Source: Tubulanus polymorphus (lineage: Eukaryota; Animalia; Nemertea). From it: a stretch of DNA of 64,000 bases. The notes under the pieces were generated by a model. It saw only the letters and a list, made by a program, of their open reading frames with translations. It made no database searches and was not told where the DNA came from. Below, piece after piece: positions 23,801-43,767 of this stretch; the first letter of the stretch is position 1, and each line of letters begins with the position of its first letter. The position numbers and the translations under genes are program-made. The stretch spans positions 20,125,101-20,189,100 of the forward strand of contig NC_134025.1 of NCBI RefSeq assembly GCF_964204645.1, written 5' to 3'.

Positions 23801-26800
23801 GTCAGGTGTGAGATCGAAACGTCGTGTTCTTATATTTTAGATTGTTTAAATTGATAAATTCTCGATTTTAGATTTCTTTTAATTTGTAAATAGTGGATTT
23901 TTATCTTATCATCTGTTCACCACGTTTGAGTGTGGTTATCGTACCATATAATTTCAATATTCCAATGTTTTAGAAAATGTATTCGATATTAGGGCCGGGT
24001 ATGCCGGTTTCATGAGAACGATTCCCATTAGCAATTTATAATAGCATAGCTGTTGTATACGGCTCCGCGTCCACTGATCATATGAGTTTCAGGTGACAAT
24101 TCAATTCTTTATTGATACTTATGTTAAACATTACATGAGATTCCCAAATTCAATAAAGTTACAAATTTTAAAATAAGAAAACACAACATACAAAACACTA
24201 GTTAGTTACCTAATCGTTGGTGGTAAGCTTTTTATAATCGGATGGGCTTGTACCAACTATAAATATGATGTGGTTTGTGAAAATATCCGATCGTGAAACT
24301 AAACCACAGACAGGTTACTGACTAACAAAACACATGCGTAACTCATACAGAATAACATAAACAAGCCCATTGCCATTTCAAATGACGATATCTACTTTAA
24401 CCCAGACTCAAGGGATCGAGTGGCAGCCTCGGGACTTAATGCCAGGTCGACCTGCTACCCAATCGCCAAATCTCACAATTCCCCGGATTTCTTAAAACTT
24501 TGATTTCAAATTTCCAATCCCACATTAGCTTATCCCAAAAATTCTACATTTTTCGCAGGCGTCAAATAATTTATTAAAATTAATTTTCTTGTTTCTTTCA
24601 GTCCACCAGGATCTACAGATCGATTGACACGGCTATGTAAACATATAATTTCTCAGAGGAGGTATGTACACTATTAGAAAATGTTAGAAACTGCATCTAT
24701 GTATATTCACTAAAGCTCAGCTTATAAAGTTGTATACCACTGAATTGTTGTGTGATATACAACTTGTATAAGTTTTATTTCATTTTATTGAAGTTTCCAT
24801 GAATGTGTTGTGCAATAAAACTCTGTATGCAGTCAATAAATGATCAGTCAGTCCCAATGCTACAGAGTAAGCAGGGCGGAGTTTGCAGTGTAACGTTTCA
24901 TGTATTTAGCGCAATCGATTGATATGATGAACTGAATTTTTTTTTTTAATACATCACATGATACGGGATAAGGGCTGTGGCTTTGCTGATTTATTGTACA
25001 TGCAAAAATGAAATCTGAACTAACACATCTGTACAGCTTGGCCGCTTATACATGTACTGCTTTAAAACTATGACTTATATGCAGTCATCGACGTGTTCTC
25101 AATTTCTATGTGCACTTGACCCTAGTTTTTCTGCCAATTATTGGAACCACGGCTTTTTGGGCACGTAATCTACGGTGTTGTCATATCACGGAATCGCGGA
25201 ATTTTTTCATTTTCACTATGCATCGTAACCGTGTTTTTGCATGGTTGGACAATGCACCGGACGCATGTTTTCATTACCGGTACCTGGTAGGCCTATGTGA
25301 TAATCTATTACTATCGTCACTCAACAAATTAACGATAGGCCAGTAGTATACAAAATAGCGGTTCTGGCGCAGCCCATCCTTACCCCGGTATACCGTGTAC
25401 CCTCTCAAAGCTTTATCTCCACCTAAATACCCTAAGAAGACAACCCCTGTGGACCGCGGTTCTGGCGCAGCCCATCCTTACCCCGGTGTACCATGTACCC
25501 CCTCAAAGCTTTTTCTCCACCTAAATACCCTAAGAAGACAACCCCTGTGGACCATGGAAAACACGCCAAGGGGCCGGCAAACCCCCTCCGGCCCCTATTA
25601 ACCAACCGCTATAATGCACCTACAACAAAGTGTTATTTACATAGATATTTACAGTATATACAAGTATGTGAAACGCTCTGACCTGGAATTCACCTCTTAA
25701 GCTGACGCTATCAGCGGTGCGCTGCGACCTGATTGTCACTGATTGCGAAATAGCCTAGAAAGTTCTATGCTGACGCAGAAGCCGGCAAACAACCGAGACA
25801 TCGACAGGCAACCAGAGTCATGTCCCTTGGACATGGCCAGGCCGGCCAACACACCAGGTGAAGCGCATCTCGTGAGAGTCCTGGTTCACTCACCAAGGTG
25901 GATATAGATTCTGCGTGGTCAGAAATGGACACAGATCTGATCTATCAAAACCTGGTGAGTGACATTAAAGCCGGGTTGCCGAAAACCCTGAAACAGCGGA
26001 AATGTGAATTACGGAAGACGCTGTTCAAGAATGAAGCCAGCTCGAAAGAATTCTTCGGCCTAGTGAGAAAAATCAGCAAACTCAACAGGGCAAATCGGTT
26101 CTTTACAACAGCCAAGCAGATTATTACGGGTTCCCCGAGCAATCAAACGCAGGAGGATGCATTTCCGACTAAACGACGGGTGAAGGAATACTTCACGGAC
26201 CTGTATTCTAGTAAGCAGACCGGTCCTATTCCTAAGCCACCCGTCAAGAACGTTGCGTTCCCGTTCGATATGTCACCGATAACCGCAGCTGAAATCGAAA
26301 AAGCCTTGAAGAGCAGCAACCCAAAGTCCGCTCCAGGTCTAGACAGGATCAAATACGGACATCTCCGTCAGCACACCCATCGACTCGCGCGATTTTACAA
26401 CGACATACTAGATACGGGAAGGCCACCTTCGAAAATCTCGGCGTGGTGCACCAGTATTGTGACGCTTCTATTCAAGAAAGGGGACCGCCGGGATCCTGCT
26501 AACTATCGTCCGATTGCGGTTACAAGCGTGATCTCGAGGCTCCTTCATTGGATAATGGCGAAACGCATAGAACGCCACGTCATTAGGAACGGATTCATCG
26601 ACACTGCCGTACAAAAAGGATTCGTGTCGGGCCTTCACGGGACACTGGAACATTCTGAATTATTAGAGACTAAAATCATCGAAGCCGAAAAAACTGAAAA
26701 TGACTCATTTGTGACTTTATTTGACCTTAAAAATGCATTCGGTTCAATCGAACACGAACTGGTAAGTGAAACGCTATCTGTCATTGGAATTCCCGCAAGC

Positions 26801-29800
26801 TGGTATAGGTACCTAACGGCGCTGTATTCTCAAATTTCTAGCAAATTCAAAGGTCCTTGGGGCACGGTCGATATCCCCTACAAACGAGGGGTCTTTCAGG
26901 GTTGCCCTCTTAGCCCCCTAATTTTCATCCTGTGCGTAGAACCCCTCGTTAGAATACTGTCAACCGGGACATCCCTAGCCTATGCAGATGACACAACGCT
27001 GGAAACAAAATCGGCAAAAGCCCACTTAGATATAACGTACGTGTTTAACAAAAAAGCCAAGGAAATGAACCTCGAACTCAGGCCGGACAAATGCGTTTCC
27101 CTGAGCGTTAGATGCGGACGAATTGAGCCATTCAAAAACGAGATAGAGGGCAAAGACACCGCGACCCTCACCGATTTGGACAGAATAACGTATCTAGGCA
27201 AAATTTTCAGTCCCAAGGGACAGGATGGGGTGGGTGAAATTCTCCTCACAAAATTCAGGCAACGACTCGCAAACATAGATAACGCCGATATACAAAGCGG
27301 GACAAAGGTTCATATCGCTATAGACTATATGCTGAGAGCTGATTACCATGACCTCATGATCAACAACCTGTCTGATAATTGCTTGCAGTTAATCGACAGT
27401 GTCTTTGTAAACACGCTACATAAATGGGGTCACCGTCGATTGCTCACTTTTCAAGTACCGTCCACCGTATACCACTGGCTTCATGCGTTGAAGGTCTACT
27501 TCCTTATCACTTCTCCCGACGAAAAAATCGTTGAAGTAGCCATCTCGAAATTCGAAAACAGCCATTATCTCGATCTCGCTTTCGAATCCCTCAACCATAA
27601 AAACTCGAAGGCGTTCATAAAACGCCACTACTTAGGAATATTCGCGCACGCCACCCCCGACCCAGAAAAATTCCCCTGTAGCTCTAAGGCGTTTGACGTA
27701 TTCGACATCTATCCGGAGCATATACCCGAAGTGTATACAGACGGCTCGTGCCTGAGAAACGGTGCAGACGAGGCTCGTGCGGGCTACGGCGTCTACTGGG
27801 GACCAGACAGTCCCTTAAACACCTGTGGCGTCGTCTATCCACCTACCAACAACAGAGGTGAATTAACCGCTGTGGTCGTGGCTCTCAATCAGGCCATCCA
27901 GCTTGGTATTAACTCCTTGCAAATTTTCACCGACTCGAAATACGTTATAAACGGTATCACTGATTGGATCAAGACGTGGAAAGCCAGGTGCTGGAAAAAC
28001 GTCAAAAACCGCGATCTCTGGACACAACTGGATGGTCTGAATAACCGAGTCTCCGTATCTTTCAAATACGTCAGGGGTCACCAGGGGGTACACGGGAATG
28101 AGATGGCGGACCAACTAGCTAAATCGGGAGCAGCTCTCAATGGTAGTAATCCGGGGGTGACGTGTCTCTGTTAAACTCTAACGTTAACCTCCATCCAGCT
28201 TTTTTATGATGGAAGCCCTGGCCTGCTCCCTGCCCTGCCTGATGAGGTCCTTTTTTGTAGCCTCGTCGATCGTGATCGACCCGTGTTTTTTACGAGCCTG
28301 TGACTTGATATCCTGCTTCAAAGTCTGATAGTTCCTCTGTTCGGCTAGAATCAGCTTGAACTCGTCATCCGAAACAACTCCATCACTTATTGCCCTCGAT
28401 ACAAGATCTGACACGGTGCTTAGTTTGGAAGAGGCTAACACTCGAATTTCGTCGTGCTTTTTACCCTTGATCAGAAGCTTCCGACCGACTATCTTCCCAG
28501 ACACGCCTAAGACGCCTAGGACGGTCGCAACGGGGATGGTGATTATGTTTGTAAGCACGCCAGCGGCTCCCGTAGCCGCGACTGCTATGCTAGCCGTCAC
28601 GAAAGCCGCGTCAAATCCATCTATGGTTTTCACCGCCCTTTTATACTTCTTGTAGAGCGCAGCGCGGGATTGTCCCTCGGACTCTAAAATTTTCTGGACT
28701 TCGCATATTTTCTGCAGTCGGAAGTTCGACGCATCTTCAGTTGGAGCACTAGGCTCAGTTGGAACCATTGGGTAAAGTTTAGTGTCGCTATCCATGCTAT
28801 ATACTATGCGGGAAAATGTCGAGCTCGATGAGGAGTGAAGCTATCGTAGCTATTGCTCGAGTAGCGGGCGATCTTGACGACTTGAAATTGATGACGTCGC
28901 CCTCGGCCATTCGACTGGTGGAGAGAACGTTTTGACCGCGGCTTGGAAGACTCCTTTACCTTGGGGTTTGATCGGGCCCTGTAAAAGCCGAGCCTCTTTC
29001 GTGATTTCTCCTTTTTCCACCCTGTTGACGGTCAACACTACTGTGGTATTAGTTGTCAAGTCGCCACCGGAGAGGCCCATTTTTAGCACTCTCCCCACAT
29101 CATCGTGTAGCCCGCGTACTGGGATCGCGACCCATCACCGTACGAAAATTCGTAAGAGCCCTCACCAAGGGGTCCTTTTTCCTCGGCCCAAACGGTTATC
29201 ACAGGTTTTGTGGTGGACTGTGTTTTCCCTAATCCCCTGTACAAGTTCATCTCTATTCTAATGCGAGCAAAATTTGGAGCGGTTCCTGGAATCGAATCTC
29301 CTCCATGTCCTGATTGAAAACCTTGACCACTACGTCGGCGAAGCCGCCTTCCTTAATTGGTATCGGTACCCCGTAAACATACTCGAATGAGTCGCCGTAT
29401 TGACCTGCTTTCGGATGTAAAATGGCGATCAGGTCCGAGGGCACCCCGTTTAGGAAGTTTCTCGATTCGTCAACGAGATTGCACGTTACGCGGTATTCCG
29501 TATGCCTGGTAAACCTACATTCTTTCGTACCCCTTACACTAGCCTCTTTACCTTCGACGTTTGGGTAATATCCTTCTGGGACTCCCAACAGATCGGTGAT
29601 GGAGCCGCTGAAGAGCACTCAGTACGGTTTTGACATTGAGTTCGATGCGCCCCCTCGCCTCCACGTAGGCTATGTTAATGAAGCCCGGTTTGTGACCGTT
29701 TCGGGTTATGACTCGCTGAATTTCGTCGTTCAAACTCTCAACCGTGTAAAGTCCATTCCTGATAATCAAGTTGAACACTTTTTGTTGGTGCTCGTCCACC

Positions 29801-32800
29801 CTTTCTCCGGTCATGTAGCGAAACCTGTGGTTGTTCAGTTTGTCGGAAACGTTGAAGTAAGCCAGAGGAATGACAGCCCGTCTTAAGGCCACAGTTTTGA
29901 AGCCACCCGTGTCGAGATGCGTTTTTAGACGCACGGTCGGATCCTTACCGTAACAGTGGATGACTAACATCCTTCCTATTTCTAACGCGAGAATTTCTTG
30001 CTCAGGACTTGGAAAGACAGACCGACTGCAGCGATAAACCACAACACCAAGTGCTCGACTGCTTCTCCGGCTTTCCTCAACAGGAAGCTAACCACCGTTC
30101 CGATCATTCCCGGCAACGCGGCAGCTCCTTTCCCTGCGAGATATTTAAGAAACGCCGTGAACTTTTTCAGAGCTTCTCGAATCCTGGACTTGGGTTCTTT
30201 TCCCGGTCCAACCGGCGGACTGGGTGTTACTACGCTTTTGAGCCCGTTCGCGATTGCGAGCCCGATGCTCGTGATAGTCATAACGACGGTCGATTATCTT
30301 CGTTCTTCAGAAGCCTCTTCAACCTCTCGATCTGAGAAGTCTCCCCCTGCCGTAGAGCCTCGTAGGTCCGCCCTTATATTGCTTCCTGAGCTTCGAACCT
30401 TTCTACTTCGTCGTCCCAGTATCGGATGTCTTGTACGGACACCGCGTCATCGCGCTCTTTCTGAGCCTTTTCTAGTTCTCGTTGGGCCCATTCCACGTTT
30501 ACAGCTGCTGACTTAATTTTGCTGGACGTAGAAACCAAAGTAGTAGCTACCCCCCGGAGTTCACGTCTGTCTTCTGGTCTCAGCGGAGCCCTGTCATCAT
30601 TGACGATGTCCTCTATTTCCTGCTGCAAACTCAACTCGTTATCCACCGACAAGCGCTCCACGATAGATGGTTCCAACAGGTCTCGTTCCATTCTCACCGG
30701 TCTGTCCGGGCCCAGAGCATGGAAAAACTCAGAGCCCCCTTTCGCTTTCGAGATGGTACTATGCGCGAGTACTTGACCGCTCCTACCGGTAAGTTTCACC
30801 CAAACTGGATCACCGTTCAGTTCCGTCTGAAAGAACCAGGTATCGTCTTGTTTTTGTAGTTGCAGGCGCATCAGGGCTCGCTCCATGTCCAGGTTACCGC
30901 CGAATTTACCGAGCAGCGAGTCGATGATGACATCTTTTTCTCCCAGGTTTTCCATGGGAATGAGCTCGCCTACGGTGTCATCTTGAGGCTCCACGTCCCA
31001 GTCTATCGGATCAACGTCGAATTCCGCCATCGTCTATAATTAAGCCAGGAATTTCTGCAAGAATCGTAAACATCAAACTCGTCCATTTGTTTTTGGATCC
31101 ACTCCTCGTACGCTTCCCACAAATTCCAGTTTTGTGCCAAAGCAAATTTCGACACTGGTTCTTTCCCGAACTTACGTTCCGGCTTTCCATGTAGCTCGAG
31201 GATTCGGTTTAAGAAGAATCCGTAGGAAAGGAAGTTTTTCCGACGAGGGAACTTTTCGAGGAAGAGTTGATAGACGTCGGCGAAGCAATATCTGATCATC
31301 GCGCATGTAGGAATGTCGAGAAACCCACCGTCCAAACCGCGATTCGATAGTCTAATTCGCCGGAGGGATGTGGACTTGTTTCGGTTTCGGAACCTTTTTG
31401 ATCTGCAACCGAAGAGGAGGGTTTACGTAGTCTTCGAGTTCTCTCTCGAGCCTTTCGAGATCAAACTCCTTAGGCAATATACCGTAGGGGTCGTCCATAA
31501 CTTACAGATATTTGTACGCGATGACGCCGGTCAGAATTACACTGCCTAATATAAAGGCCTACTCACTGTTCAATTGGGCGTCTGAAGGGGAATAGAAATC
31601 GCCTAGCACCGGCCGCTGGCTCAAAGATAGTTTGTCGTTCCTGGTACTGTTGTAAAGCCTAAGGGCCTCATCGACGTCCGAAAAGTCGGATTTTGTCTGC
31701 ATCTCTTTTTGCAGCTCCCTGTTGAGGTAGTCCAGTGTCTTTTGCCGTTTCTCGTTCCAGGTCACCATTGCCGCGTTCAATCGCTCCATAGCCTTGTCGT
31801 GCCTCTCTCGTTCTTGGGCAGCTCCGGAGTCGCCTTGTACCGCTCTATAGATTGCTTGGCCTCCGGTAAATGCCACAGCGTTCGCTATGGCGCCGCCGAT
31901 GATAACCGCTGCAGTAGCCATGATTAGGTCCCTATATTTGGGGGCAGAATTTTCGACTTCTCCAGGTAATCCTTGGAGATGGTTGCTAAAGAAACCGCAA
32001 CCGTGAGTTTCATAGCTTCGGAAAGGTCAGCCTTGGAGGGATCACCCACATCGAAGCGTAGCATTTTCTTCCCGAGCATCGCGTACCCTACGGTCAGTCC
32101 GCTTAGAATGGCCGAGTGATAAAGTACGTTTGCGATTGTTCGATAGTCTGGATTCGTTGCCATCGTGCTATATCCATCTACAGAAAATTTAGGTCATCTC
32201 CACAAGGCGACAAGTTAAAGGTTCGGGTGTTGGTTCCGTGTTTTCTTCGGGTTTCGGGGTTTGGTTTAGCGCCATTCTCTGATAGTATAGAGCTCCGAGG
32301 CCCACTAACAACCTGCCTATCGCGATCCACATTTGCAGGTGTTTTGACTGGGTTCTGTTTTCGTCGTCGGAACCGACAATCGGGGCAGCCGTTTTCTTCG
32401 AGGCTCGCTGCTGCCTACTTATTTCGGCAAGCTTTTTGCCCCATGCGACTCGACCAGGGGACTTTTGTTTATGCGGGTTAGTCGTCACTTGTTCCACTTG
32501 TTCAAGTTCCATCCCTATATGCAAGAGAGGAAAATATGACTTACGGGAAAGTGGACAAGTTACTTATCGGCAAGTGGACTAGTTACTTGCGGACAAGTGG
32601 ACAAGTCACTTTCCTCAGAATCTGCCATATTCTTCCCGGTGATTACCGCCACGTTCGCGATTGCGAGTATGGGAGTCTTCAGAATCCTACCCAGATGGCC
32701 GAGCTGGTTTTTCATCTCGGCGGTGATAACAAAGTTTTCAGTCAACTCCTTGTTTAGCTGTTCTGTGTCTACTTTAGGTCTGACCCACTTGCAGAGCTTG

Positions 32801-35800: not shown

Positions 35801-38800
35801 GAGATGAAATGTCCCCTACCAGCCAACAGCGGTTTCAACATGCTCGATAATCCCGTGAACGAACTAGCGTTTGAACGTATCTGCGGCGAATTCAATGTCC
35901 CCCAAAACACTGACTTTAGGTATTGGATCGGAGAAGCAGGCGATCTGGGCACGCTTTACACGAAACAGTACCTGAACGAAAAAGGATGGGTTAACTTCGT
36001 GGCACCCGAAAGTCACTGTCTGACCAAAGCCCGGGTGGAACGCCTGAACGACTCCATTCGGGCGTACGTTTACTGCATCCTAGGAGCCCAAGCACAAACT
36101 CGAAACGTCATCGTCGGTGACACCAGTACTGCGTTTGACGCTCAGAAACAATTCTTGGCCCTATTCGAGGACGCCGTACACGGCGAAGGCTCTCAGACTT
36201 TGGTAGATTCCATTCGGCGCTATCAAAACGCTATCAGTCAGACGCACAGTAAACTCGATTTCGCCGTCGGACCAAACCTCTACCTGATGCCGAGTGACAT
36301 GGTGCTGAAAATGGGAAGCTTGGTACGCTACAATAACAACATTAGAGTGGCTACCGACAAAATGAAGTTCGGAATCGATGACGTCAATGAGGCACGGCCA
36401 CCGCCAAAAATAGTTACCACGGAAAAGAGCAAAGTGGTTCGCGATATGCAAACAGCAGTACGCGAGGCCCCTCCCCCACCTAGGCCCTCACATCCTCCCA
36501 ACACTCCTCTTACGGTCAGACAAAAGGACAAACTAGCGTTCGCGTTAGGTACAGCAGTAATCGTAGCGTCTGGTGTGCATTTTCTCAAGAAGTAGGTATA
36601 GGGAAAGATGGAAGAGGTTTGGACGAAACACGGCTACTCGTCGGCCCTGAAACTGTACAGAATTATGAAAAAGCGTGATCCCGGTGTTACGTTCGCAGAA
36701 GTTGACAAGTTTGTATCGGCGAAGAAGACTTATCAGCTACATAAAAAGACGCGCAGACAAATTCAAGGACATATCGTAGCCTACTGCGAGAACTGCCTTT
36801 GGTTCGCGGACCTACTGGATCTGTCGAACTACGGTCGACGAAACAAGGGATACAAGTGGATTCTACTTTGCGTTGACGTATTCACTCGAAAGGCCTACGC
36901 GCAGCCGTTGAAAAAGAAGACCAAGGAAGCCGTCAAAGAGGGATTCGAGGCAATCATGGAAGGTCTCGGCGAGGAGAAAGTGACTCTAGTCACCGATTCT
37001 GAATCGGAGTTTCTAAACAAACCGATGCAAGAACTGTTTAGGACGCTGGGAATTGAACACAGGACTGTTGATGTTGGCGACCACAAAGCGCTTGGCATCA
37101 TCGACAGGCTGTCTAGGACGATAAAGGAGATCATTTTCAAGGATTTCACCGAAAGAGAAACCGTCGTGTGGTACGATCGTTTGCCAGATTACGTAGATGG
37201 CTACAACGCTACACCTCACGGGGGTATTTCAGATATGACTCCCGAAGAGGCCGGAGAATCCCGAAATGAAGAAAGGTTACTGTTCGAAAATATCGGCAAA
37301 TCCGAACCCCCTAAGAGCCCGTTCAAGCCAGGCGACAGCGTAAGGAAAAAGCTGAAAAGACCCGTGTTCAAAAAGGGTTCAAACAGTGCACTCCCTCGCG
37401 TCTGTGGAAGGCTTAAAAGGGGTCCTCGATAATGGAGAATCAGCTAGGTTGGACGATCTGCAACTAGTGATACCTCCAGCTGAAGAGAAGACGACGGTAG
37501 ACGCTGTGTCCGTAGCCGACAAAGAGCACAAGATAGAGCAGACTATCAAGCACAAGGAGGGTTTGTCACCCGAAGCGGTAATGCCCTCGAATAGCAGGTA
37601 CAGCCTGCGATCTAAAGCTCGTTGAGCAATTCCTCGACGTACTCGTCCAACGGAGTCCTGGCATTTTTGTGGCCGTAAGCGAGCGTAGCGATACCATCGT
37701 CGGCGATCCACCTCTTACTGTCGAAGGGACTGAGACTCTGCTTTGTCATACGCAGGCCGTACATTTTGTGACCCTCGCTTCTCAGCATATTCATTCCGTG
37801 CTGGAAGACCTTCTTTTGGAACAGACATTCCTTGTATTGCTCGTGGCGGATCTGTTTCTTCACCACGTTCTTTTTCACACCCTTGGCCTTCTTGATGTTA
37901 GTCTGATCGGCTTTTAAGATGCTGTACATCTTCGGTCTGAGCCCGACGTACTCCTGGATGGGTGTACCCGCGCACTCGTCTTTCATCTTACCTAGAACCT
38001 TCTTGTTGACGTTGCTATGCAGCGGGTGATTTCCCGGGTAATCGCTAGTATCGTAAAGGTCGTTGTTCGATTCCATGTCTTCGTAGATGTCTTCCGTCTC
38101 AATCTCTAGCAGAAGACTGTCGGTGTCAGTGTACAGCAATCGAGTACAATCGCCGTATACCTGTTTCATGTGGTTATAGTAGAAGTCGTACATCAGCAGC
38201 TTGCTGAGATCGAGCACAGACATCCCTACGTAAACGGGCCTATTCAGGTACAGATTAGTCTTGTACATGTGCATCGCGGCAAGATCGTCGTCAAACACCT
38301 TGGACCTGGCGAAGTTCGGCTTGGCTATCAACTTCCTCAACCTGTCTTCCTCGTTTCATCTGACAAGCTTCACGTCTACCCTGCGTCTAAGATTTTCCAT
38401 GGTCTTGCCGAATACGGAGTTATTCATCAGCTTGTACAGGTTCTTCTCGAAGTCGCTGGTTGCTAGCTTTCTTAGTTTTGTGTTCAGTCTTATATACGGC
38501 TCCATCCACGGCGATTGGTCGAATTCGAGGGCGCGATGAATCTTTGTGAGCTTCAGTCCTAGCTCCAGGTACAACTTAAGGTTCCTGTAATGAACGACGT
38601 ATCTCTCCTTGTTGCGGAGATTAGGCACCAGTTTTTCCGTTTCGGTCGAACCCCCCAGTCTTCCTAACAGATCTTGCTGGTACTGCGACATCCAAGCTTC
38701 TTGAACCTTAAGCCTTTCCGGTGCCAGTGGGTACTCGTTGTGCGAGTCGTGCAGCCCCCTGGGGTATTCCAAGTCTACCTCTAGAATGTAACCTTTCTCT

Positions 38801-41800
38801 GCGTCATCCGGATGTCCCGATACATTGAGTTCTTGCGGCCTTTCAACCCACTCGAATCCGCCCGTAGGCAGGTGTTGCGACATAGCCCAGCCATATAAGA
38901 TATTCGCGTCAAGGTACATTACGTGTGTCGTCGGCTTCTTTGGATCGTGACCGGGAACCAAAGGATTGTTGGCCCTGCAGTGGCGTTTGCTGACCATGGA
39001 AATGCCACCTCGCAGACCCTTTTCGATGAATAAGAACTGGTCGTAGTCCATTAAGAGCTCTAGTTTAACCTCTGTTTTCTTAAGTAGAGCGTCCCAGCTA
39101 AGACCCGGGCTGGTGTAATACTGTGCGGGATCTAGGCCGTACTGCTTCACGCAAGTGGACCTGAAATTCTCGAATACATCGGCGAGAAGAACCGTATCGG
39201 TCCTCAGATAGAGGTCGTGGTAGTCACCCATAGTACGGCACTGAAACTGAAACTACGGCACTAGTCTTGATCGCTGATTCCCGCCTCTGATAGCTTGCTG
39301 TAGAAGGCTCCTTTTGACGGAAGCTGGGTATCCTGGAATTTCTCCCAACTGTCCATGTACTCGTATGGGTATACGCCCTTTCTCAGTAACAGCTCTAGTT
39401 TTTCAGGTACAGGTTCGGCCGCGGCTGTCAGCGTAAAGCTCCCCTTAGCGGCTGACGCAACCAGTCTGTCAGTCTGTCAGGTGGGGCCAGCAAGAACTGC
39501 ACAGAATCGATGAACCGCAAATTACCGAGACTGAATGAGATGTACTTCTCCATGTTATTCGGGATGCACGTTATCTTTCCTTCAGTCCGACAGATTGCCT
39601 GCATGATGAGATGAGAGTCGTAACCGCGGAGGTTGTGAAACACAGCCGGTATAGGCGTGTATTTCGCGGACAGTCGCAACTTGAGATTGCACTCGTTGTG
39701 GGCCGGGCCCCGGTAGTCACCCGTTATGTGATCGTGATCCCTGACCCGATCCTCATAGAGTGGTTTGTCGCATACGTAGCAATTTTCCGCTTCCTCGAAT
39801 GACGTTTGCTCCTCCCGAGTAGTTACCATAGGCGCGGGATGGGCGAGCACGCCCTTGATTTTCTCCTCTTCCCCTTGGAGGTGCTGAAGGAATACCGCCG
39901 CAGCGTCTTGGCCTCTATAAAGGACGGGTGGTTCTTGTTTACCGTCGCTTCTCACTACCACGTACGAGAACCCGCACGCCTTGTGAAGTTGAGTCTTTTC
40001 GCTACCTTTCTGGTTAGGGTTCCTTCCCGGCCCCTCGAATTTGGTTGTAATGGCTTCGAAGTCGGCATAGATGACGAACGGAATCTTGAGCTGCTTGTGA
40101 TGATTGGTGAACCGCAGCACTTTGTCCTCCTCCGAGGGCATACTGGTACGCATCGGACCTCCGTTGACTCCTCGACAATCTGACCTGTGCCTCTCCAGGA
40201 GATCTTCTCTGGTGAAACAATGAAGGCACCGCTCGCAGCAGTGTTTCCTCCCTTCAAACTTACTCTGGGTGAACAACAGGCGATTGAGGTCTTTGATCCA
40301 TGTGTAATGCTGTTTCTCACCGCTCTCTACGAGTAGCAAGTTAATTCTAGGAATGGGGGCCGGGCCATCGCTGATATGCAGTGGGTACACGCCTTTGTCA
40401 TACCCGAACACGTTGATTGCCAGTCCGTTTTGTCGTTCGACCATAGGAATCTGACTCAATGGTGTTGGTGAATCGATGCCTGTAAAGTCAAGCTGGTCCC
40501 AGTGATTCGCATACTTCGATGGCCTCCGGGGGTCTCTCTCTACGGGGTATTTCGAGGCCAGTATTGACCACTTAAGGCAGTGATCATCTCTATTTTTGAC
40601 ATTTACGACGGCGTGTCTTCTCTTGACTGCGACGGGGAGGTCGATATAAGAACCGCCTCTCAACGGTTGATATCTGGCGATATTCAGGAATAGTTCGACT
40701 ACCCTCTCTACAGCCCATCCGGAACCTTCTCTCATATAATTCTCAATACTCTGTAAAACCCTAGCTTCAGCTTTACCCAACTCCTCATTTATGTTAGCCG
40801 CCTTCGATAGAACGTATTGCTTCGACCAGAAGGGCGGCTCGACGTGCGCATAGGTGCCGTCGTTCTTCTCCTTCCTCAACGAAACCCGCAGAGCAATGGA
40901 GAATTTTACACCCTTAAGGTCAATGATCTCCTCGACTAACTTCTCCCTTACATTGTTCCGCTGTTCGCGCAAGAATATCGACGGATCAGTCACATCGGTG
41001 GCTGGTCTCAAAACCCAGGCCCTCAGATAATTTTGGATAGCAAACGGGGCCCTATGAAACGCGGGTTCTGGCTCCGGTAGAATCTCATCCCAAATCGGAT
41101 CATCGTCCGGTATAATGTTTTCTACCTTGTACTTGGGTTTTCTGGGGGCGGGTTTTGGCTTTCTCGGAGCAGGCGTCGGTCTGCGGGTCAACTGGTTGAT
41201 GGCATCGGCATATGTTACGACAGTAATCTGCCCGTCTCGAAGTAAATCGGTCAGACTTTTTACCGCGCTGTCCATCTTGCTTTCGCATATATGAGAAATA
41301 TATGTCTCTAAATGGAAATTTTTGGGGGGCCCCTCGTCAGAAGTCGGCACACGCCGAATGTTGGCCGGGCCTGGCCATGTCCAAGGGACATGACTCTGGT
41401 TGCCTGCCGATGTCTTGGTTGTTTGCCGGCTTCTGCGTCAGCATAGAACTTTCTAGGCTATTTCGCAATCAGGTGGCAGCGCACCGCTGATAGCGTCAGC
41501 TTAAGAGGTGAATTCCAGGTCAGAGCGTTTCACATACTTGTATATACTGTAAATATCTATGTAAATAACACTTTGTTGTAGGTGCATTATAGCGGTTGGT
41601 TTATAGGGGCCGGAGGGGGTTTGCCGGCCCCTTGGTGTGTTTTCCATGGTCCACAGGGGTTGTCTTCTTAGGGTATTTAGGTGGAGAAAAAGCTTTGAGA
41701 GGGTACACGGTACACCGGGGTAAGGATAGGCTGCGCCAGAACCGGGGTCGGGCTGCGCCAGAACCGCGGTCCACAGGGGTTTTCTTCTTAGGGTATTTAG

Positions 41801-43767
41801 GTGGAGATAAAGCTTTGAGAGGGTACACAGTATACCGGGGTAAGGATGGGCTGCGCCAGAACCGCGGTCCACAGGGGTTGTCTTCTTAGGGTATTTAGGT
41901 GGAGATAAAGCTTTGAGAGGGTACACGGTATACCGGGGTAAGGGTGCGCTGCGCCAGAACCGCTATTTTGTATACTACTTAGGCCTACTTCCAGAGAAAA
42001 TGGAGAACCTACGAAGGCAGTTAATCTATCAACACTTTGACCGTATCTATGAGGTGTATGTTGTAGAATTATATAAAAGAGAAATATCCCAAAATGAACG
42101 ATGTCAGACAAAAACAGATACACATTATGCATATTTTGGCTTTGGATTTTTAATGCGTCTCGTGCATGTAAATTATGATTTATGCGAGTGTGGTGTATCT
42201 AGAAGAGTTAATAGAAGTTGAATGATATTAAAGATTATATATATAAAATGGTATCTTTTTTAACACTGTTATTTGTGGAGAGAAAGCTGTTACTTAGTTG
42301 CTTCTCTGTGTTGATTCCTTGGGTCAAAAAATGTAATATCTGTAATAGACGGAGGTTTCTATCAAAATAATTTTTAAGGAACCGCGGTACATGTTTGGTA
42401 GTAGCACATTTCACGCTTGCAGCCATCTGAAACTAGAGCGACCATGCTCAAATCTACTAAGATCACAAAAAATCGATTAACTTCGATAACCGATGTTTGC
42501 CCTGTTGCCATACTCTTTGTCCGACTACATGCTGACTGCTGCTGCAGCTGGTAACTGAACGTAATCAATGTCAGATAAAATTGCGTGCTAGTAGTGTGAT
42601 TCGTAGCTAACTCAGTGAATCAATTGGTCTTGTGCCCTGTCCGACACCGGGTATCCCTGTGGGAAAACCCGGTTACTGTTTATAGTGAAAGTGAAGAAAT
42701 TCCATGTTTTTTTTTTTTTTAATTTCGTGATTCCGTCATTCCGCGTCATGACAACACCGGGTAATCTAGGATGCTGGGTAGCTTAACGTTATTTTGATTC
42801 ACAATGAACTGAATACTTGTGAGCAGGAATTTTGATATAACTGATTTCATGTCGTTGATAATTGAGGCGTGACTGCATGTGATTATCGATTACTTTTCAG
42901 TTATTATCCACTTTATCCTCCTGGTGAAGATGTTAATCTGGAATTTGAAACGTTCGAAAACCATGCCCGACTACCATCTGTGCCTCATATACTTCTGGTC
43001 CCATCAGATCTACGATATTTCATCAAGGCAAGTTTCAAATTTAAATTAGCTGCATTATGCAGTAGATTCGATGTATCTTGGATCCTTTTACTCTGTAATA
43101 TTGCTCTTCTATGAGACGAGTCAGAAGTCTTAAGAACTGCAGTCTGCTGCATGTCCTATAGAGGTTATGCAAAGAGGTCATACACATTGTTTGTCATCAT
43201 AGTGTCCATCAATTGTGACTTAGCTTCAGGTAGCCCCTTGCACTAGATAGGCAATATGGCGCGCATCATGTGCATGATCACTATTGAGTACACTTGGCGA
43301 TCTCAAAAATATGAAGATATGTTCACTGAAGCATTTCTTCTCAATAGGTTCCTAGTGCACCAGCAAGAACACAAGACGCCAAAAATTCAAAATCCCTGAT
43401 TTCCAATTAGAGTCGGAATGCCCCAATTTTCCGGAAAAGATATACTGTATCTGAAATTCCTTAATTTCCTTGGAAAGAACTGATAGCGTCTCTTAGCAAT
43501 AAATAATTGCCCTTTTCATCAGGTGCTGCCCCTCCATATATGCACTGGATCCGCCCCTGGTCTACTGGTACATCCATTATTGTTTACTCGATGTACTTAA
43601 CGGTTTATGTTTTATGATTTTAGGAGGTTTCCAAGTGTTGTTGCATAAATCCTGGAAGATTGGCGAAAGGGAAAAGTGGTGGCACGTACGCTCGATTCTA
43701 TCTGCCTCACGTTGACAGTTCAAAACCGTTATTTCAACAACTTTCCGCTCAAGTGTTGAAAATTTAG
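8900..43767 (+). CDS. POLA2: DNA polymerase alpha subunit B, multi-exon; first coding exon not located in the window
   Basis: Exons read by hand with consistent phases: 8900-9021, 9894-9976, 10140-10197, 11415-11527, 16490-16680, 16757-16854, 17465-17620, 17942-18004, 18164-18203, 18524-18642, 22055-22164, 22361-22457, 22817-22926, 24602-24661, 42901-43027, 43624-43767. Conserved motifs: FMFQK, GRICCDS.GKLN, YSLFPGQVV, VACGPFTTS, LGPFID, VPSSRDVHH..YPQPPF, DPC...ING..IGLTSTD, QRSYYPLYPP, PSDLRYFIK, CINPGRLAKG..GGTYAR. Confidence 0.95.
9977..10139 (+). other. U12-type (minor spliceosome) GT-AG intron in POLA2
   Basis: 5' site GTATCCTTTT, branch point CCTTAAC at 10115-10121 about 18 nt before the CAG, little polypyrimidine tract, reading frame preserved. 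Confidence 0.85.
10443..10543. repeat. Short inverted-repeat element (MITE-like)
   Basis: ATAATCGAAGAAGTCCCAC ... GTGGGACTTCTTCGATTAT. Confidence 0.55.
11609..11833. mobile_element. MITE with CAGGGTGGCC termini and 5-bp TSD
   Basis: CAGGGTGGCCAC...GCGGCCACCCTG, flanked by TAGCA on both sides. Confidence 0.7.
11888..13368 (+). mobile_element. Helentron-associated interspersed element (HINE/DINE-1-like)
   Basis: 5' ACCTTCATGAC...GTCATGAAGGT hairpin, 3' subterminal inverted copy GTCATGAAGGT then stem-loop AGGCCCGTGGGCCT, T-run flanks, internal ~120-bp degenerate tandem repeats at 12.8-13.15 kb. Confidence 0.6.
13486..14076. mobile_element. hAT-like non-autonomous element with 6-bp TSD
   Basis: CAGAGTCGCCACTT...AAGTGGCAACTCTG, flanked by TAACTG on both sides. 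Confidence 0.75.
14718..15606. mobile_element. Non-autonomous DNA transposon with ~50-bp TIRs and TTA TSD (PIF/Harbinger-like)
   Basis: TGCAACCGTCAATTGTAACCCTGAACCCCCCCTCCTCAGG and its inverted copy ending at 15606; TTA on both sides. Confidence 0.75.
20187..20541. mobile_element. GC-rich palindromic MITE (PIF/Harbinger-like, TAA/TTA flanks)
   Basis: GGACACACTGGGCGATTTCGTCG and inverted terminal copy; several internal AATCGCCCAGTGTGTCCG repeats. Confidence 0.75.
20903..21524 (+). mobile_element. HINE/DINE-1-like element containing a (GTTC)n microsatellite and three ~120-bp tandem units
   Basis: 5' TTAGCTCCGCTGTG, 3' CACAGCGGAGCT plus short stem-loop and T-run; (GTTC)n at about 20953-21041; repeated GTCCTACAGTTTTAATCAGATCAA units. 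Confidence 0.7.
21553..21753. repeat. Near-perfect 101-bp tandem duplication in an intron
   Basis: CTGGTACTCTTGATTTTATTTC...GCATCATTCGGT starts at 21553 and again at 21654. Confidence 0.9.
22579..22619 (-). ncRNA. Minimal type I hammerhead ribozyme in a Penelope-like pseudo-LTR relic
   Basis: Minus strand CAC-CTGATGA-A-GCTACTA-TACAT-TAGTAGC-GAAA-GC-TC-GTG: complete core, 7-bp stem II, stem I CAC/GTG. Lies in an inverted duplication at about 22547-22697. Confidence 0.75.
23768..23809 (-). ncRNA. Second minimal hammerhead ribozyme (different Penelope-like family) at the centre of a ~190-bp palindrome
   Basis: Minus strand ACAC-CTGACGA-T-GATCTC-TAGTGT-GAGATC-GAAA-CG-TC-GTGT. Palindrome spans about 23704-23891. 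Confidence 0.65.
25342..25851 (+). repeat. Left terminal inverted repeat (~510 bp; two 98-bp tandem units at 25358-25553)
   Basis: Reverse complement of 41359-41979 apart from unit number and small indels; the match ends at ...GGCCAACA. Confidence 0.93.
25925..28174 (+). CDS. Non-LTR-type reverse transcriptase fused to C-terminal RNase H, no endonuclease (749 aa from the first ATG)
   Basis: RT motifs SAPGLDRI.Y, LLFKKGD...PANYRPI, QKGF...G..EH, DLKNAFGSIEH, RGVFQGCPLSP, YADD (26981-26992), YLG. RNase HI from 27731: YTDGSC, AGYGVYWG, TNNRGEL, FTDSKY, NRDLW, VRGHQGVHGNEMADQLA. Frame opens at 25862 after a TGA at 25859-25861. Confidence 0.95.
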   Translation: MDTDLIYQNLVSDIKAGLPKTLKQRKCELRKTLFKNEASSKEFFGLVRKISKLNRANRFFTTAKQIITGSPSNQTQEDAFPTKRRVKEYFTDLYSSKQTGPIPKPPVKNVAFPFDMSPITAAEIEKALKSSNPKSAPGLDRIKYGHLRQHTHRLARFYNDILDTGRPPSKISAWCTSIVTLLFKKGDRRDPANYRPIAVTSVISRLLHWIMAKRIERHVIRNGFIDTAVQKGFVSGLHGTLEHSELLETKIIEAEKTENDSFVTLFDLKNAFGSIEHELVSETLSVIGIPASWYRYLTALYSQISSKFKGPWGTVDIPYKRGVFQGCPLSPLIFILCVEPLVRILSTGTSLAYADDTTLETKSAKAHLDITYVFNKKAKEMNLELRPDKCVSLSVRCGRIEPFKNEIEGKDTATLTDLDRITYLGKIFSPKGQDGVGEILLTKFRQRLANIDNADIQSGTKVHIAIDYMLRADYHDLMINNLSDNCLQLIDSVFVNTLHKWGHRRLLTFQVPSTVYHWLHALKVYFLITSPDEKIVEVAISKFENSHYLDLAFESLNHKNSKAFIKRHYLGIFAHATPDPEKFPCSSKAFDVFDIYPEHIPEVYTDGSCLRNGADEARAGYGVYWGPDSPLNTCGVVYPPTNNRGELTAVVVALNQAIQLGINSLQIFTDSKYVINGITDWIKTWKARCWKNVKNRDLWTQLDGLNNRVSVSFKYVRGHQGVHGNEMADQLAKSGAALNGSNPGVTCLC
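28184..28795 (-). CDS. Polinton membrane-associated protein with central hydrophobic hairpin and N-terminal LYP/PSAP motifs
   Basis: Intact 203-aa ORF; hydrophobic AAFVTASIAVAATGAAGVLTNIITIPVATVLGVLGVSG; TATAG 1 nt before ATG. Confidence 0.8.
   Translation of the reverse strand: MDSDTKLYPMVPTEPSAPTEDASNFRLQKICEVQKILESEGQSRAALYKKYKRAVKTIDGFDAAFVTASIAVAATGAAGVLTNIITIPVATVLGVLGVSGKIVGRKLLIKGKKHDEIRVLASSKLSTVSDLVSRAISDGVVSDDEFKLILAEQRNYQTLKQDIKSQARKKHGSITIDEATKKDLIRQGREQARASIIKKLDGG
28797..29250 (-). pseudogene. Small beta-rich Polinton structural-type protein, two frameshifts
   Basis: MNLYRG...ITVWAEEKGPLGEGSYEFSYGDG...GYTMM / GRVLKMGLS...TFSPPVE / AEGDVINFKS...ASLLIELDIFPHSI*, joined across frames; fills the gap between penton and the next gene exactly. 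Confidence 0.6.
29253..29970 (-). pseudogene. Minor capsid protein (penton), one frameshift near 29610
   Basis: ORFs 29548-30042 and 29253-29618 join into about 240 aa with penton-type motifs YFNVS..NN.F.Y, NGLYTVESLN, VTCNLVD...NG..SDLIA, IPI...V.VKVFNQD...I.F. Confidence 0.75.
29982..31030 (-). pseudogene. Coiled-coil plus C-terminal membrane protein, interrupted by a stop (30374-30376) and a frameshift/deletion near 30285
   Basis: ORF 30374-31030 (acidic N-terminus, coiled coil) reads on past TAA, then shifts into ORF 29982-30281 (LAGKGAAALPGMIGTVVSFLL...LVLWFIAAVGL). Confidence 0.65.
31003..31498 (-). pseudogene. VLTF3-like (poxvirus A2 / NCLDV late transcription factor 3) C-terminal domain protein, one frameshift
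   Basis: F...FPRRKNFLSYGFFLNRILELHG...K...Q...LWE resembles the RKNFLSY.Y.L..L.ELLG signature as I recall it. The upstream part MDDPYGILP... (ATG 31498) is in another frame. Confidence 0.6.
31502..31921 (-). CDS. Small Polinton membrane/coiled-coil protein with an in-frame TAG at 31559-31561 before a C-terminal TM helix
   Basis: MATAAVIIGGAIANAVAFTGG...ERERHDKAMERL...; the frame continues after TAG as AFILGSVILTGVIAYKYL*. Confidence 0.7.
31924..32163 (-). CDS. Small hydrophobic Polinton protein (79 aa)
   Basis: Two hydrophobic segments, tight packing with neighbours, TATAG 4 nt upstream. Confidence 0.7.
   Translation of the reverse strand: MATNPDYRTIANVLYHSAILSGLTVGYAMLGKKMLRFDVGDPSKADLSEAMKLTVAVSLATISKDYLEKSKILPPNIGT
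32189..32512 (-). CDS. Small basic protein with a single TM segment
   Basis: MELEQVE...KQKSPGRVAWGKKLAE...WIAIGRLLVGLGALYY; TATAG 2 nt before ATG 32512. Confidence 0.65.
   Translation of the reverse strand: MELEQVEQVTTNPHKQKSPGRVAWGKKLAEISRQQRASKKTAAPIVGSDDENRTQSKHLQMWIAIGRLLVGLGALYYQRMALNQTPKPEENTEPTPEPLTCRLVEMT
32560..33063 (-). CDS. Polinton hypothetical protein (167 aa, acidic N-terminus)
   Basis: Intact ORF between ATPase and the small membrane genes; TATAG 5 nt upstream. Confidence 0.7.
   Translation of the reverse strand: MDEVYDELLSDIGLDVESPEDDESEGRRQLLVGLSQSGLLAKIGIKKSEGQLKKMNSKALERVWTEYENHYSAAVSDSLINSILYGYSKLCKWVRPKVDTEQLNKELTENFVITAEMKNQLGHLGRILKTPILAIANVAVITGKNMADSEESDLSTCPQVTSPLADK
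33091..33708 (-). CDS. A32/FtsK-HerA family DNA packaging ATPase
   Basis: PFNMIVS-RQTNCGKT (Walker A with the first G replaced by R), LFLIDD (Walker B), SGRHLNISVWVLTQ. Confidence 0.9.
   Translation of the reverse strand: MDRLWLQPPFNMIVSRQTNCGKTADYVLDLLQSVYRGKFHNIVIFCPTFLENTTYDRSFVMKDPNIFVMNPGSVLNDLDGLLSTCTKVYGDPHCQTLFLIDDCANLRDTKTKSSELTKLAFSGRHLNISVWVLTQKYNAVVKDFRENLRMLVLYHQKDEDGLKDALRENNIVPKTKRERVIADLSARNRARLVMRLEYPFAYGVF
33721..34968 (-). CDS. Major capsid protein (double jelly-roll, hexon-like)
   Basis: Intact ~415-aa beta-rich ORF next to the ATPase (NPSSVSPGETLYVRIP, LVPGSLKLAFDL, NIALEYD, NVNVPRRSMKGLL, LWIDLRS..D..LHGSG). Start placed at MSAYG after TATAG. Confidence 0.8.
   Translation of the reverse strand: MSAYGKHLNPSRQIRTPLGVKADRHHEVITHNPSSVSPGETLYVRIPKLQVNTLLVPGSLKLAFDLSKEGPANNFFVNNISRNLMARIVDKLGGEILSDLNYSFVFQTYKDLWLTDKRRSNMILEGIGNENLRKLRSDAEDALKTNTKETMIKSVFKNRYAIPIDFELYTDHGPFYPFAINEDFVREITFNEIKFTVNGSAEAWGYSVKNIALEYDTVHSAELARQIEGDLSAGVSFLYDYVTFFRSQSTGTSTILNVNVNVPRRSMKGLLIFFQEEFDNGQYDSESTSFQNPKIKNVDVTIEGISHKVYKQGLKPYQQWEECRRFLMPESAKETDESHIDEFSFFVDDKYALWIDLRSTDDNSLHGSGLRLVNTKDGVQLAITRTSTTEYTMFIYVVADAQVNIQNNQLKAILF
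35010..35384 (-). CDS. Viral Bcl-2 family protein (BH1 + BH2, no TM anchor)
   Basis: MFTDNRVNWGRIVTLIAF (BH1 NWGR) and WVIEQGGW (BH2). Start placed at 35384 from the TATAG motif; the ORF could extend to ATG 35444. Confidence 0.88.
   Translation of the reverse strand: MHPVSDLIVWYATGQPIQDNDLSRKLKGNVVAGIERYSLQFMALSGFAWEEINLEAIWKMFTDNRVNWGRIVTLIAFASYLAKHFFRVTDNLYYVEEIAFRTREFFNDNLAYWVIEQGGWSELP
35414..36595 (+). CDS. Polinton hypothetical protein, 393 aa, Pro-rich linker and C-terminal TM anchor
   Basis: Intact ORF; QLNFAIWCATSGCGVS, FHVYYQTRKIL, YVYCILGAQAQTR; C-terminal LAFALGTAVIVASGVHFLKK. Confidence 0.8.
   Translation: MFPPEFVYDPSSRYSVPVVPFKDKLDYRGDIHKALTSLRIQVSSRVDDYFQTTVPDIFRIYPIRFNNLGEFRVWRRTNTKFWQNQLNFAIWCATSGCGVSWKNHMNNSSPLVTSLFRFHVYYQTRKILSEMKCPLPANSGFNMLDNPVNELAFERICGEFNVPQNTDFRYWIGEAGDLGTLYTKQYLNEKGWVNFVAPESHCLTKARVERLNDSIRAYVYCILGAQAQTRNVIVGDTSTAFDAQKQFLALFEDAVHGEGSQTLVDSIRRYQNAISQTHSKLDFAVGPNLYLMPSDMVLKMGSLVRYNNNIRVATDKMKFGIDDVNEARPPPKIVTTEKSKVVRDMQTAVREAPPPPRPSHPPNTPLTVRQKDKLAFALGTAVIVASGVHFLKK
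36608..37625 (+). CDS. Retroviral-like (rve) Polinton integrase, frameshift near 37385 in the C-terminal part
   Basis: WFADLLDL...NKGYKWILLCVDVFTRKAYA.PLKKK, LVTDSESEF, GIIDRLSRTIKE, YNATPH...MTP, FKPGDSVR; tail continues in ORF 37386-37625. Confidence 0.92.
37612..41275 (-). pseudogene. Protein-primed family B DNA polymerase (pPolB), at least 3 frameshifts/indels
   Basis: Exo YADFE, FHNLRGYD, YLRTD..LLADVFENFR; KGVYPYEY (39.35 kb); Pol YLDANILYGWAM, KLMNNSVFGKT, YTDTDS, K.KGV; zinc module C..C...RDHDHITG.YRG.AH..CN; N-terminal NVKN.DDHCLKW...HYTWI (vOTU-like protease region). Confidence 0.95.
41359..41979 (-). repeat. Right terminal inverted repeat (~620 bp; three 98-bp units plus a ~22-bp internal duplication)
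   Basis: Reverse complement of the left TIR; units span about 41648-41963. Confidence 0.93.
43028..43623 (+). other. GC-AG intron (last POLA2 intron)
   Basis: AAG|GCAAGT donor right after the conserved PSDLRYFIK; joins in frame to EVSKCCCINPGRL. Confidence 0.8.

Follow-up and report, generated by a model that had tools for sequence, protein, structure and literature searches.

Polintons are taken to replicate from DNA to DNA. Here we describe a Maverick/Polinton-type element that carries its own reverse transcriptase (RT) gene, found in a 64-kb window of the genome of the nemertean Tubulanus polymorphus (contig NC_134025.1, positions 20,125,101 to 20,189,100; "the window" means this whole stretch, and all coordinates refer to it). 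The gene encodes a nuclease-free RT of the non-LTR type (LTR, long terminal repeat) fused to an RNase H1-type domain, and almost every copy of the element in the species carries it at one end. We are confident that the RT is a resident gene of a Polinton lineage. The explanation that we favor, with moderate confidence, is that this resident RT-RNase H has an accessory role in RNA-templated repair and is not a jumping gene; repair polymerase as the particular job of the enzyme is a tentative assignment.

The element occupies 25342-41979 and is a real 16.6-kb unit within the window, bounded by terminal inverted repeats (TIRs) and a target-site duplication (TSD):

25336..25341, no strand, left TSD TAGGCC (from the sequence and the empty-site allele contig of X4)
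25342..25843, no strand, left TIR with an AGTAGT terminus and two 98-bp tandem units
41368..41979, no strand, right TIR with extra 98- and 22-bp units
41980..41985, no strand, right TSD TAGGCC

The two TIRs are ~500 bp long and 94-98% identical, AGTAGT begins both ends of the element and the 6-bp TAGGCC abuts each outer side. An initial annotation made from the sequence had described these termini, TIRs and TSD as intact, and all were recovered. GC content is 46-53% in the element versus ~38% in the flanks. One X4 contig passes from 25341 directly to the right flank, giving the empty-site allele, and a second X4 contig joins the element terminus to another flank. A 6-bp TSD and long TIRs whose termini are of the AG type define Mavericks/Polintons. 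Both traits are present here, together with a protein-primed DNA polymerase of family B (pPolB), an rve integrase, a capsid protein and an A32 ATPase, and a repeat comparison found no long direct terminal repeats (LTRs) in the element. It is a Maverick/Polinton-type integrating DNA virus. The host sequence into which it has inserted is a high-copy repeat resembling a miniature inverted-repeat transposable element, with inverted arms at 25173-25237 and 42664-42759.

The RT gene lies next to the left TIR:

25925..28174, + strand, intact 749-aa ORF, endonuclease-less non-LTR-type RT joined to an RNase H1-type domain

This open reading frame (ORF) begins 82 bp inward of the TIR and contains no internal stop. 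Pfam places RVT_1 at residues 185-425 (E 7e-30) and RNase_H at residues 602-736 (E 4e-35). The catalytic motifs of the RT (FDLKNAF at 266, YADD at 353) and of the RNase H (YTDGS at 604, NNRGE at 642, FTDS at 668, RGH at 717, ADQLA at 728) are kept, in agreement with the uninterrupted 749-aa RT-RNase H frame reported initially. Neither an apurinic/apyrimidinic endonuclease (APE) domain nor a restriction-like endonuclease (RLE) domain was found in the ORF by Pfam and a motif check, and there is no zinc knuckle behind the RT. Exo_endo_phos gave no match, and the open frame reaches only 21 codons ahead of the RT ATG. A long interspersed nuclear element (LINE) of the APE type with an RNase H was rejected as the identity of the gene, since no AP endonuclease precedes the RT and the RT falls outside the APE branch of the tree.

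The predicted structure of the protein has a mean predicted local distance difference test (pLDDT) score of 82, from a 12-sequence alignment. Its matches are R2 retrotransposon proteins first and then LINE-1 ORF2p, and the last domain matches human RNase H1. The RT core and thumb are predicted to adopt an R2-like fold (PDB 8gh6, E 2.6e-23). The initial annotation had likened the enzymes of the element to a retroviral pol, a framing that we abandoned: the RT is of the R2/RLE non-LTR type, the RNase H is of the cellular RNase H1 type, the integrase has its own gene at a distance of 8.4 kb and there are no LTRs. A pol gene of a retrovirus or LTR retrotransposon was likewise rejected, as the element has neither LTRs nor an LTR-type RT-RNase H-integrase polyprotein.

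The immediate surroundings of the gene bear on whether it could move by itself. The RT stop and the neighboring gene's stop are only 9 bp apart, and around the ORF we observe no poly(A) tract, no AATAAA and no flanking direct repeat of 6 bp or more. The composition of the RT is that of the element and not of the host (GC 0.48 versus 0.47-0.54; GC3 and CpG likewise). A specialized retroelement could ride Polintons by targeting the TIR-adjacent site, like Ngaro in mavirus-type virophages. The RT does derive from a retrotransposon, and retrotransposons nested both in virophages and in polinton-like viruses (PLVs) have been described (PMC8547959, PMC12220804; here and below, statements resting on published sources apply to the parts of those sources that were available). 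Against such a rider, the ORF has no endonuclease, integrase or recombinase, there is no space for a 3' untranslated region (UTR), it has no repeats of its own, its GC content is that of the virus, unlike the GC-distinct nested elements, and read depth gives no sign of free copies. We consider this explanation very unlikely.

To ask how the gene is distributed among sister copies, element copies were counted from sequencing reads and not from assemblies. The counts come from X5, a set of raw reads whose sample and study differ from those of the best holders of the element, X1-X4. Mean depth in X5 was 61.6 for the RT and 61.8 for the capsid gene, with 60.9 across 28268-33631 and 58.9 across the greater part of pPolB. 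In finer bins, depth was 62.0 for the RT, 144 for the TIR and 8.2 for the flank, placing the element at ~7-8x the flank. Among 153 X5 reads that cross the inner end of the TIR, 64 run into the RT side and 67 into the pPolB-side end. Because RT depth equals capsid depth and the TIR-exit reads split between RT and pPolB, the RT sits at one end of almost every element copy. At a TIR/RT depth ratio of 2.3, a minority of copies may lack the RT. An X1 contig covers 25824-27723, from the TIR through the RT. At the inner end of the TIR (25843), X1 and X2 contigs also exit into sequence that matches neither end of the window element, a further junction type present at at least one locus. Finally, free-standing RT copies would add RT depth, and the X5 reads show no such excess at 85-90% likeness or better.

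Relatives of the gene were sought outside the species. Two further RT-RNase H fusions, P0001 (733 aa, 41%) and P0002 (51% identity), were found together with seven RT-only relatives of 522-686 aa that also lack a nuclease, one of which (P0141) may be cut by a contig end. P0002 is encoded on L001, a 2.1-kb metagenome contig. There the RT-RNase H is followed, tail to tail, by a 36%-identical homolog (E 5e-16) of the gene at 28184, which is the tail-to-tail neighbor of the RT in the window. Over 476 codons, the window RT and the L001 RT differ at a proportion of synonymous sites (pS) of 0.81, which is saturated, and a proportion of non-synonymous sites (pN) of 0.33; the gene is thus conserved at the protein level. 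Sharing of both fusion and neighbor at a saturated distance is the pattern that a long-kept viral gene would show. The metagenome scan with the RT yielded 74 loci, and L001 was the only one with a match to another element protein, as it was among the 77 loci compared. Viral contig scans with the RT alone, the major capsid protein (MCP), the 35414 ORF and an MCP alignment returned no relative, and those with RT alignments returned only distant RTs of large DNA viruses. A scan of genome contigs gave 45 loci, the best of which, L080, is a complete RLE-type retrotransposon (family membership was examined for L080, and L081 received a repeat scan only). This complete eukaryotic retrotransposon (L080:370-3357) lies inside a bacterial genome bin and is probably contamination. 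In another relative, P0005, two C2H2-like zinc fingers are inserted ahead of the RT domain at about residues 135-200.

These data bear out the RT-bearing Polinton lineage proposed in the initial annotation: in sister copies the RT occupies the TIR-adjacent position, and the neighbor gene is preserved in a distant relative. The contrary picture, of copies that mostly lack the RT and an RT belonging to a free-standing LINE, is not what we find, as the RT is TIR-adjacent and shows no excess of free copies. A recent LINE insertion was rejected on the equal depth of RT and capsid and on the L001 synteny at saturated synonymous sites.

We then placed the RT among other RTs in trees of 389 columns with 89, 53 and 28 rows, the last set being thinned by hand and run under LG+C20 with posterior mean site frequencies. 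A single group, nested among non-LTR RTs that carry an RLE, unites ten nuclease-less proteins with four RTs of giant-virus type. Support for the group by the Shimodaira-Hasegawa-like approximate likelihood ratio test (SH-aLRT) was 95 with 89 rows; support was 96/99 with 53 rows and 99/97 with 28 rows under the mixture model, where the clade has 11 rows. The nuclease motif PD..ELT occurs in 0 of 14 clade members versus 13 of 18 neighboring rows. In approximately unbiased (AU) tests, constraining the window group to fall within the nearest RLE group was rejected (p=0.0003), and moving the long giant-virus branch to the outgroup was not (p=0.073). The window RT probably shares a clade with stand-alone giant-virus RTs, on a long branch for which that AU p=0.073 applies.

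Stand-alone, nuclease-less RTs of 617-681 aa occur on giant-virus contigs (L056:8302-10344, L062, L079, L050:4116-5966 and L060:5225-7087). Of these, the RTs of L050, L056, L062 and L079 group with the window RT in these trees. Their genes adjoin one for an RNA polymerase subunit and one for the P9 capsid, and they are syntenic with the P9 capsid gene and a tubulin-tyrosine-ligase-like gene. Matches in BFVD were annotated as stand-alone RTs and came from large DNA viruses, namely Hokovirus HKV1 (A0A1V0SEZ1), Mimivirus LCMiAC01, Bodo saltans virus, entomopoxvirus MSV061 and lymphocystis disease virus (Q678G0). The nearest Atlas cluster is a 605-aa Nucleocytoviricota RT (score 0.93), which we treat as a lead only. 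The RTs of L075-L077 branch with APE-type LINEs and appear to be a separate capture.

The nearest full elements in the trees consist of RT, zinc knuckle and RLE, and the window RT has lost both the zinc knuckle and the RLE. In structure and in sequence (~40% identity), its C-terminal RNase H is matched best by cellular RNase H1 (human PDB 2qk9/6vrd; nematode P0227 and P0228). The three RNase H domains of the fusions group together weakly (81), alongside animal RNase H1 (95). A history can be proposed for both domains. An ancestor would have taken up the RT core from a non-LTR retrotransposon of the RLE type, presumably from the HERO clade, which we take to be the likely donor, and would then have lost the nuclease; one branch would later have fused an animal RNase H1 catalytic domain in the former nuclease position. 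Alternatively, a LINE truncated at both its 5' and 3' ends may have landed in the founder of the family and been carried passively ever since. One founder could indeed give all copies in one species, and the RT of those copies decays neutrally (see below). This account is at odds with the same fusion and neighbor in L001 at saturated synonymous distance, with a nuclease-less design common to nine relatives and with the AU rejection of the nearest-RLE placement, and we regard it as highly improbable.

What might a resident RT do in a DNA virus? Strand-displacement replication of a linear genome, as in protein-primed replicons, exposes long single strands to viral mRNA. The RT would have to use existing 3' ends, because it has no nuclease to open DNA. 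We propose that it would extend such ends at breaks, at stalled strand-displacement intermediates or on displaced single strands annealed to viral mRNA, with either RNA or DNA as the template. The tethered RNase H would then clear RNA from the hybrid, and pPolB or host repair would complete the product. Occasional cDNA capture of host mRNAs could be a by-product. There are precedents for such a role: the G2L4 RT acts in break repair (PMC11761039), and human cytomegalovirus employs L1 ORF2p to relieve replication stress (PMC11369119).

The remaining genes of the element set the context for two other possible roles:

25903..25907, + strand, TATAG motif, candidate viral promoter element (inferred), 22 nt ahead of the RT start and common to 8 other element ORFs
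28184..28795, - strand, 203-aa protein of unassigned function with a hydrophobic middle, tail-to-tail neighbor of the RT here and in L001
29253..31030, - strand, ORFs or ORF pieces without assigned function (29253-29618, 29548-29970, 29982-30281, 30374-31030), no Pfam match
31003..31422, - strand, VLTF3-like late transcription factor piece (PF04947, E 1.5e-4, weaker than the curated cut-off)
31559..33063, - strand, small ORFs without assigned function, TATAG ahead of each
33091..33708, - strand, A32-type packaging ATPase (E 2.9e-14)
33721..35013, - strand, double jelly-roll capsid, 430-aa ORF (from homologs and predicted fold)
35010..35474, - strand, Bcl-2-family ORF, intronless (E 1.9e-13)
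35414..36595, + strand, 393-aa protein of unassigned function, no match
36608..37432, + strand, rve integrase (E 1.4e-11)
37612..41275, - strand, pPolB region in three ORF pieces (PF03175, DNA_pol_B_2, E 1e-12)

The usual Polinton/adintovirus module read from this stretch initially stands as to the A32 ATPase, rve integrase, capsid and pPolB. It does not stand in full: pPolB is split over three ORFs in the window copy, so that the ends of the element are intact and its replicase is not, and an adenain-like cysteine maturation protease was not found by Pfam among the 17 ORFs scanned, where a very divergent one could escape. Candidate ORFs for a minor capsid protein had no Pfam match. By its predicted fold, the 430-aa ORF is a double jelly-roll capsid: it has 384 homologs, its model reaches a pLDDT of 89.5 and structure comparison matches it to the capsids of Paramecium bursaria chlorella virus 1 (PBCV-1), Singapore grouper iridovirus (SGIV) and mavirus (E down to 5e-17). 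VLTF3 and Bcl-2 accessory genes have been reported in polintoviruses and adintoviruses (PMC11131425, PMC8502044).

The Bcl-2 ORF (35010-35474) and the 393-aa ORF (35414-36595) overlap head to head by 61 bp. Over the 393-aa ORF and the integrase (35420-37207), X5 depth falls to 23.5 versus ~60 in the rest of the element, and X1 dips there too, so that in many copies this block is either missing or divergent. Two further features lie outside the element. A broken Pao/BEL LTR retrotransposon (DUF1759, Peptidase_A17, RT, DUF5641) occupies window 403-4314 on the minus strand, and 44974-46047, also on the minus strand, holds a 357-aa single-exon ORF for a rhodopsin-family receptor (7tm_1, E 3e-4); these flanking features point to an animal host.

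For 9 of 15 ORF starts, that of the RT among them, a TATAG occurs in the 30 nt upstream, at a chance of ~0.02 per upstream interval for a motif chosen after the sequences had been viewed; the spacing is 22 nt at the RT versus 6-15 nt at the other eight ORFs. The motif is common to the RT, capsid, ATPase and integrase, which would fit late expression and packaging. This is one point for a reading in which the resident gene acts against RNA or a competitor, like defense-associated RTs: primed host RNAs (immune transcripts, small-RNA precursors) or the RNA of a co-infecting virus would be copied into cDNA and destroyed. The RT and RNase H active sites are both intact, and Bcl-2 is another host-interference gene on the element. 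We found no partner noncoding RNA (ncRNA) and no evident priming mechanism. An Rfam search had no match at gathering level, and the 18 best-folding of 276 tiled windows do not include the RT leader. As a candidate partner, a 377-nt stretch of TIR and leader gave z -3.7 as a hand-picked region and was rejected, since its sub-regions reached only z -0.5 to -1.5 and the tiling was unsupportive. We consider this role unlikely.

The symmetry of the element raises a second possibility, an RNA-intermediate step. Here the RT, possibly protein-primed through an acidic tyrosine tail, would copy a viral transcript or the TIR repeats, the RNase H would clear the RNA and the rve integrase would insert the product. 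The RT and pPolB genes lie symmetrically 82 bp and 93 bp inside identical TIRs, and TIR repeat number differs among reads. An acidic Y-P C-terminal tail, a candidate priming or binding tail, occurs in 6 of 9 relatives (P0003, P0004, P0005, P0285, P0139, P0170), and the window RT has D-I-Y-P-E at residues 593-598, directly ahead of the RNase H. However, P0002 has phenylalanine at the tyrosine position, and the linker lacks a reliable model (pLDDT <50). Genes occupy both strands over 16.6 kb, there are no LTRs and a full-length-type pPolB is retained. An RNA step of this kind seems very improbable to us, and the broader proposition, that an animal double-stranded DNA (dsDNA) virus lineage packages an RT-RNase H with an integrase and passes part of its cycle through RNA, is improbable.

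Several observations weigh against a resident gene with a repair role, to which we now return. The flank baseline behind the copy estimate consists of three 144-bp bins from one raw-read run. Within the species, frame-breaking deletions in the RT occur in 10/67, 14/55 and 6/46 reads, and the RT positions listed (17 of 332 differences) comprise 5 synonymous and 12 non-synonymous changes, at a site ratio of 508:1739. The RT thus decays like neutral sequence within the species, which argues against a host use. The intact frame in the window is not evidence of selection after insertion, because other copies are broken in the RT; selection on the RT is seen only between lineages and not on endogenous copies. 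Of the 10 clade members outside giant viruses, only 3 have an RNase H, and DNA context is readable for only one of the nine relatives outside giant viruses. That one, L001, shows no capsid or pPolB over its 2.1 kb, so we infer its Polinton nature from one neighbor gene; its RT also has a frame break in the N-terminal part. To our knowledge, most Polintons replicate without any RT, and for this reason the repair job cannot be essential.

RT domains inside Polintons have previously been read as nested retrotransposons, and what we describe is a non-jumping RT that is a fixed, conserved virus gene. We found no description of a resident Polinton RT in the parts of the literature covered; an annotated case could be present in supplements, in Repbase, in the coral paper's tables or among the genome maps of bioRxiv 2024.03.25.586562. 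The strings "reverse transcript" and "RNase H" have 0 occurrences in the main texts of bioRxiv 10.64898/2026.06.19.733378, bioRxiv 10.64898/2026.10.13.758929, PMC11131425, PMC8502044 and PMC11161782. In the available parts of PMC12220804 and PMC8547959, RT in PLVs and virophages is described only as nested retrotransposons, and bioRxiv 2024.03.25.586562 describes, for a megavirus and a poxvirus, RTs that resemble those of group II introns, with none noted for adintoviruses in the part available. A 16.6-kb genome keeps few dispensable genes, making this element the simplest system for asking what use DNA viruses make of a domesticated RT. The element also raises the question of whether a virus-encoded RT might contribute to host-gene capture, a process documented for host LINE-1 and poxviruses (PMC9578709). 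The natural ORF is unbroken and ready for assay without alteration, and a compact non-LTR RT with a built-in RNase H may be of enzymological use. If an RNA step were true, the jelly-roll DNA viruses would have in this element their first member that reverse-transcribes, and one domesticated RT clade would be shared with giant viruses.

Compared with known systems, the element resembles Mavericks/Polintons in its TIRs, 6-bp TSD, pPolB, rve integrase, double jelly-roll capsid and A32 ATPase (framework of bioRxiv 10.64898/2026.06.19.733378). It differs from them in its resident RT-RNase H and in having no maturation protease among the 17 ORFs. With the retrotransposons nested in virophages and PLVs (Ngaro in endogenous mavirus-like elements, PMC8547959; cryptophyte PLVs, PMC12220804) it shares an RT and RNase H in a TIR-bounded capsid element. 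Those retrotransposons are 4-9.5 kb long, GC-distinct and repeat-flanked, carry their own recombinase or integrase and occupy varied sites, whereas the window gene consists of one 2.2-kb ORF in a fixed place. The RT core is of the non-LTR type with an R2-like thumb, as in RLE-type retrotransposons (R2, NeSL/Utopia, HERO; PMC4640811). Unlike them, it lacks a zinc knuckle, an RLE, a 3' UTR, a tail, a TSD of its own and dispersed copies, ends in an RNase H1 domain and is fixed in a virus; oomycete Utopia has its RNase H upstream of the RT and keeps the RLE (PMC4640811). In contrast to cellular RNase H1, the RNase H domain has no N-terminal hybrid-binding domain and is fused to the RT thumb. The stand-alone RTs of giant viruses offer a further likeness, as they too are nuclease-less non-LTR RTs kept as genes of a dsDNA virus, but they have no RNase H and reside in large genomes rather than in a 16.6-kb integrating element.

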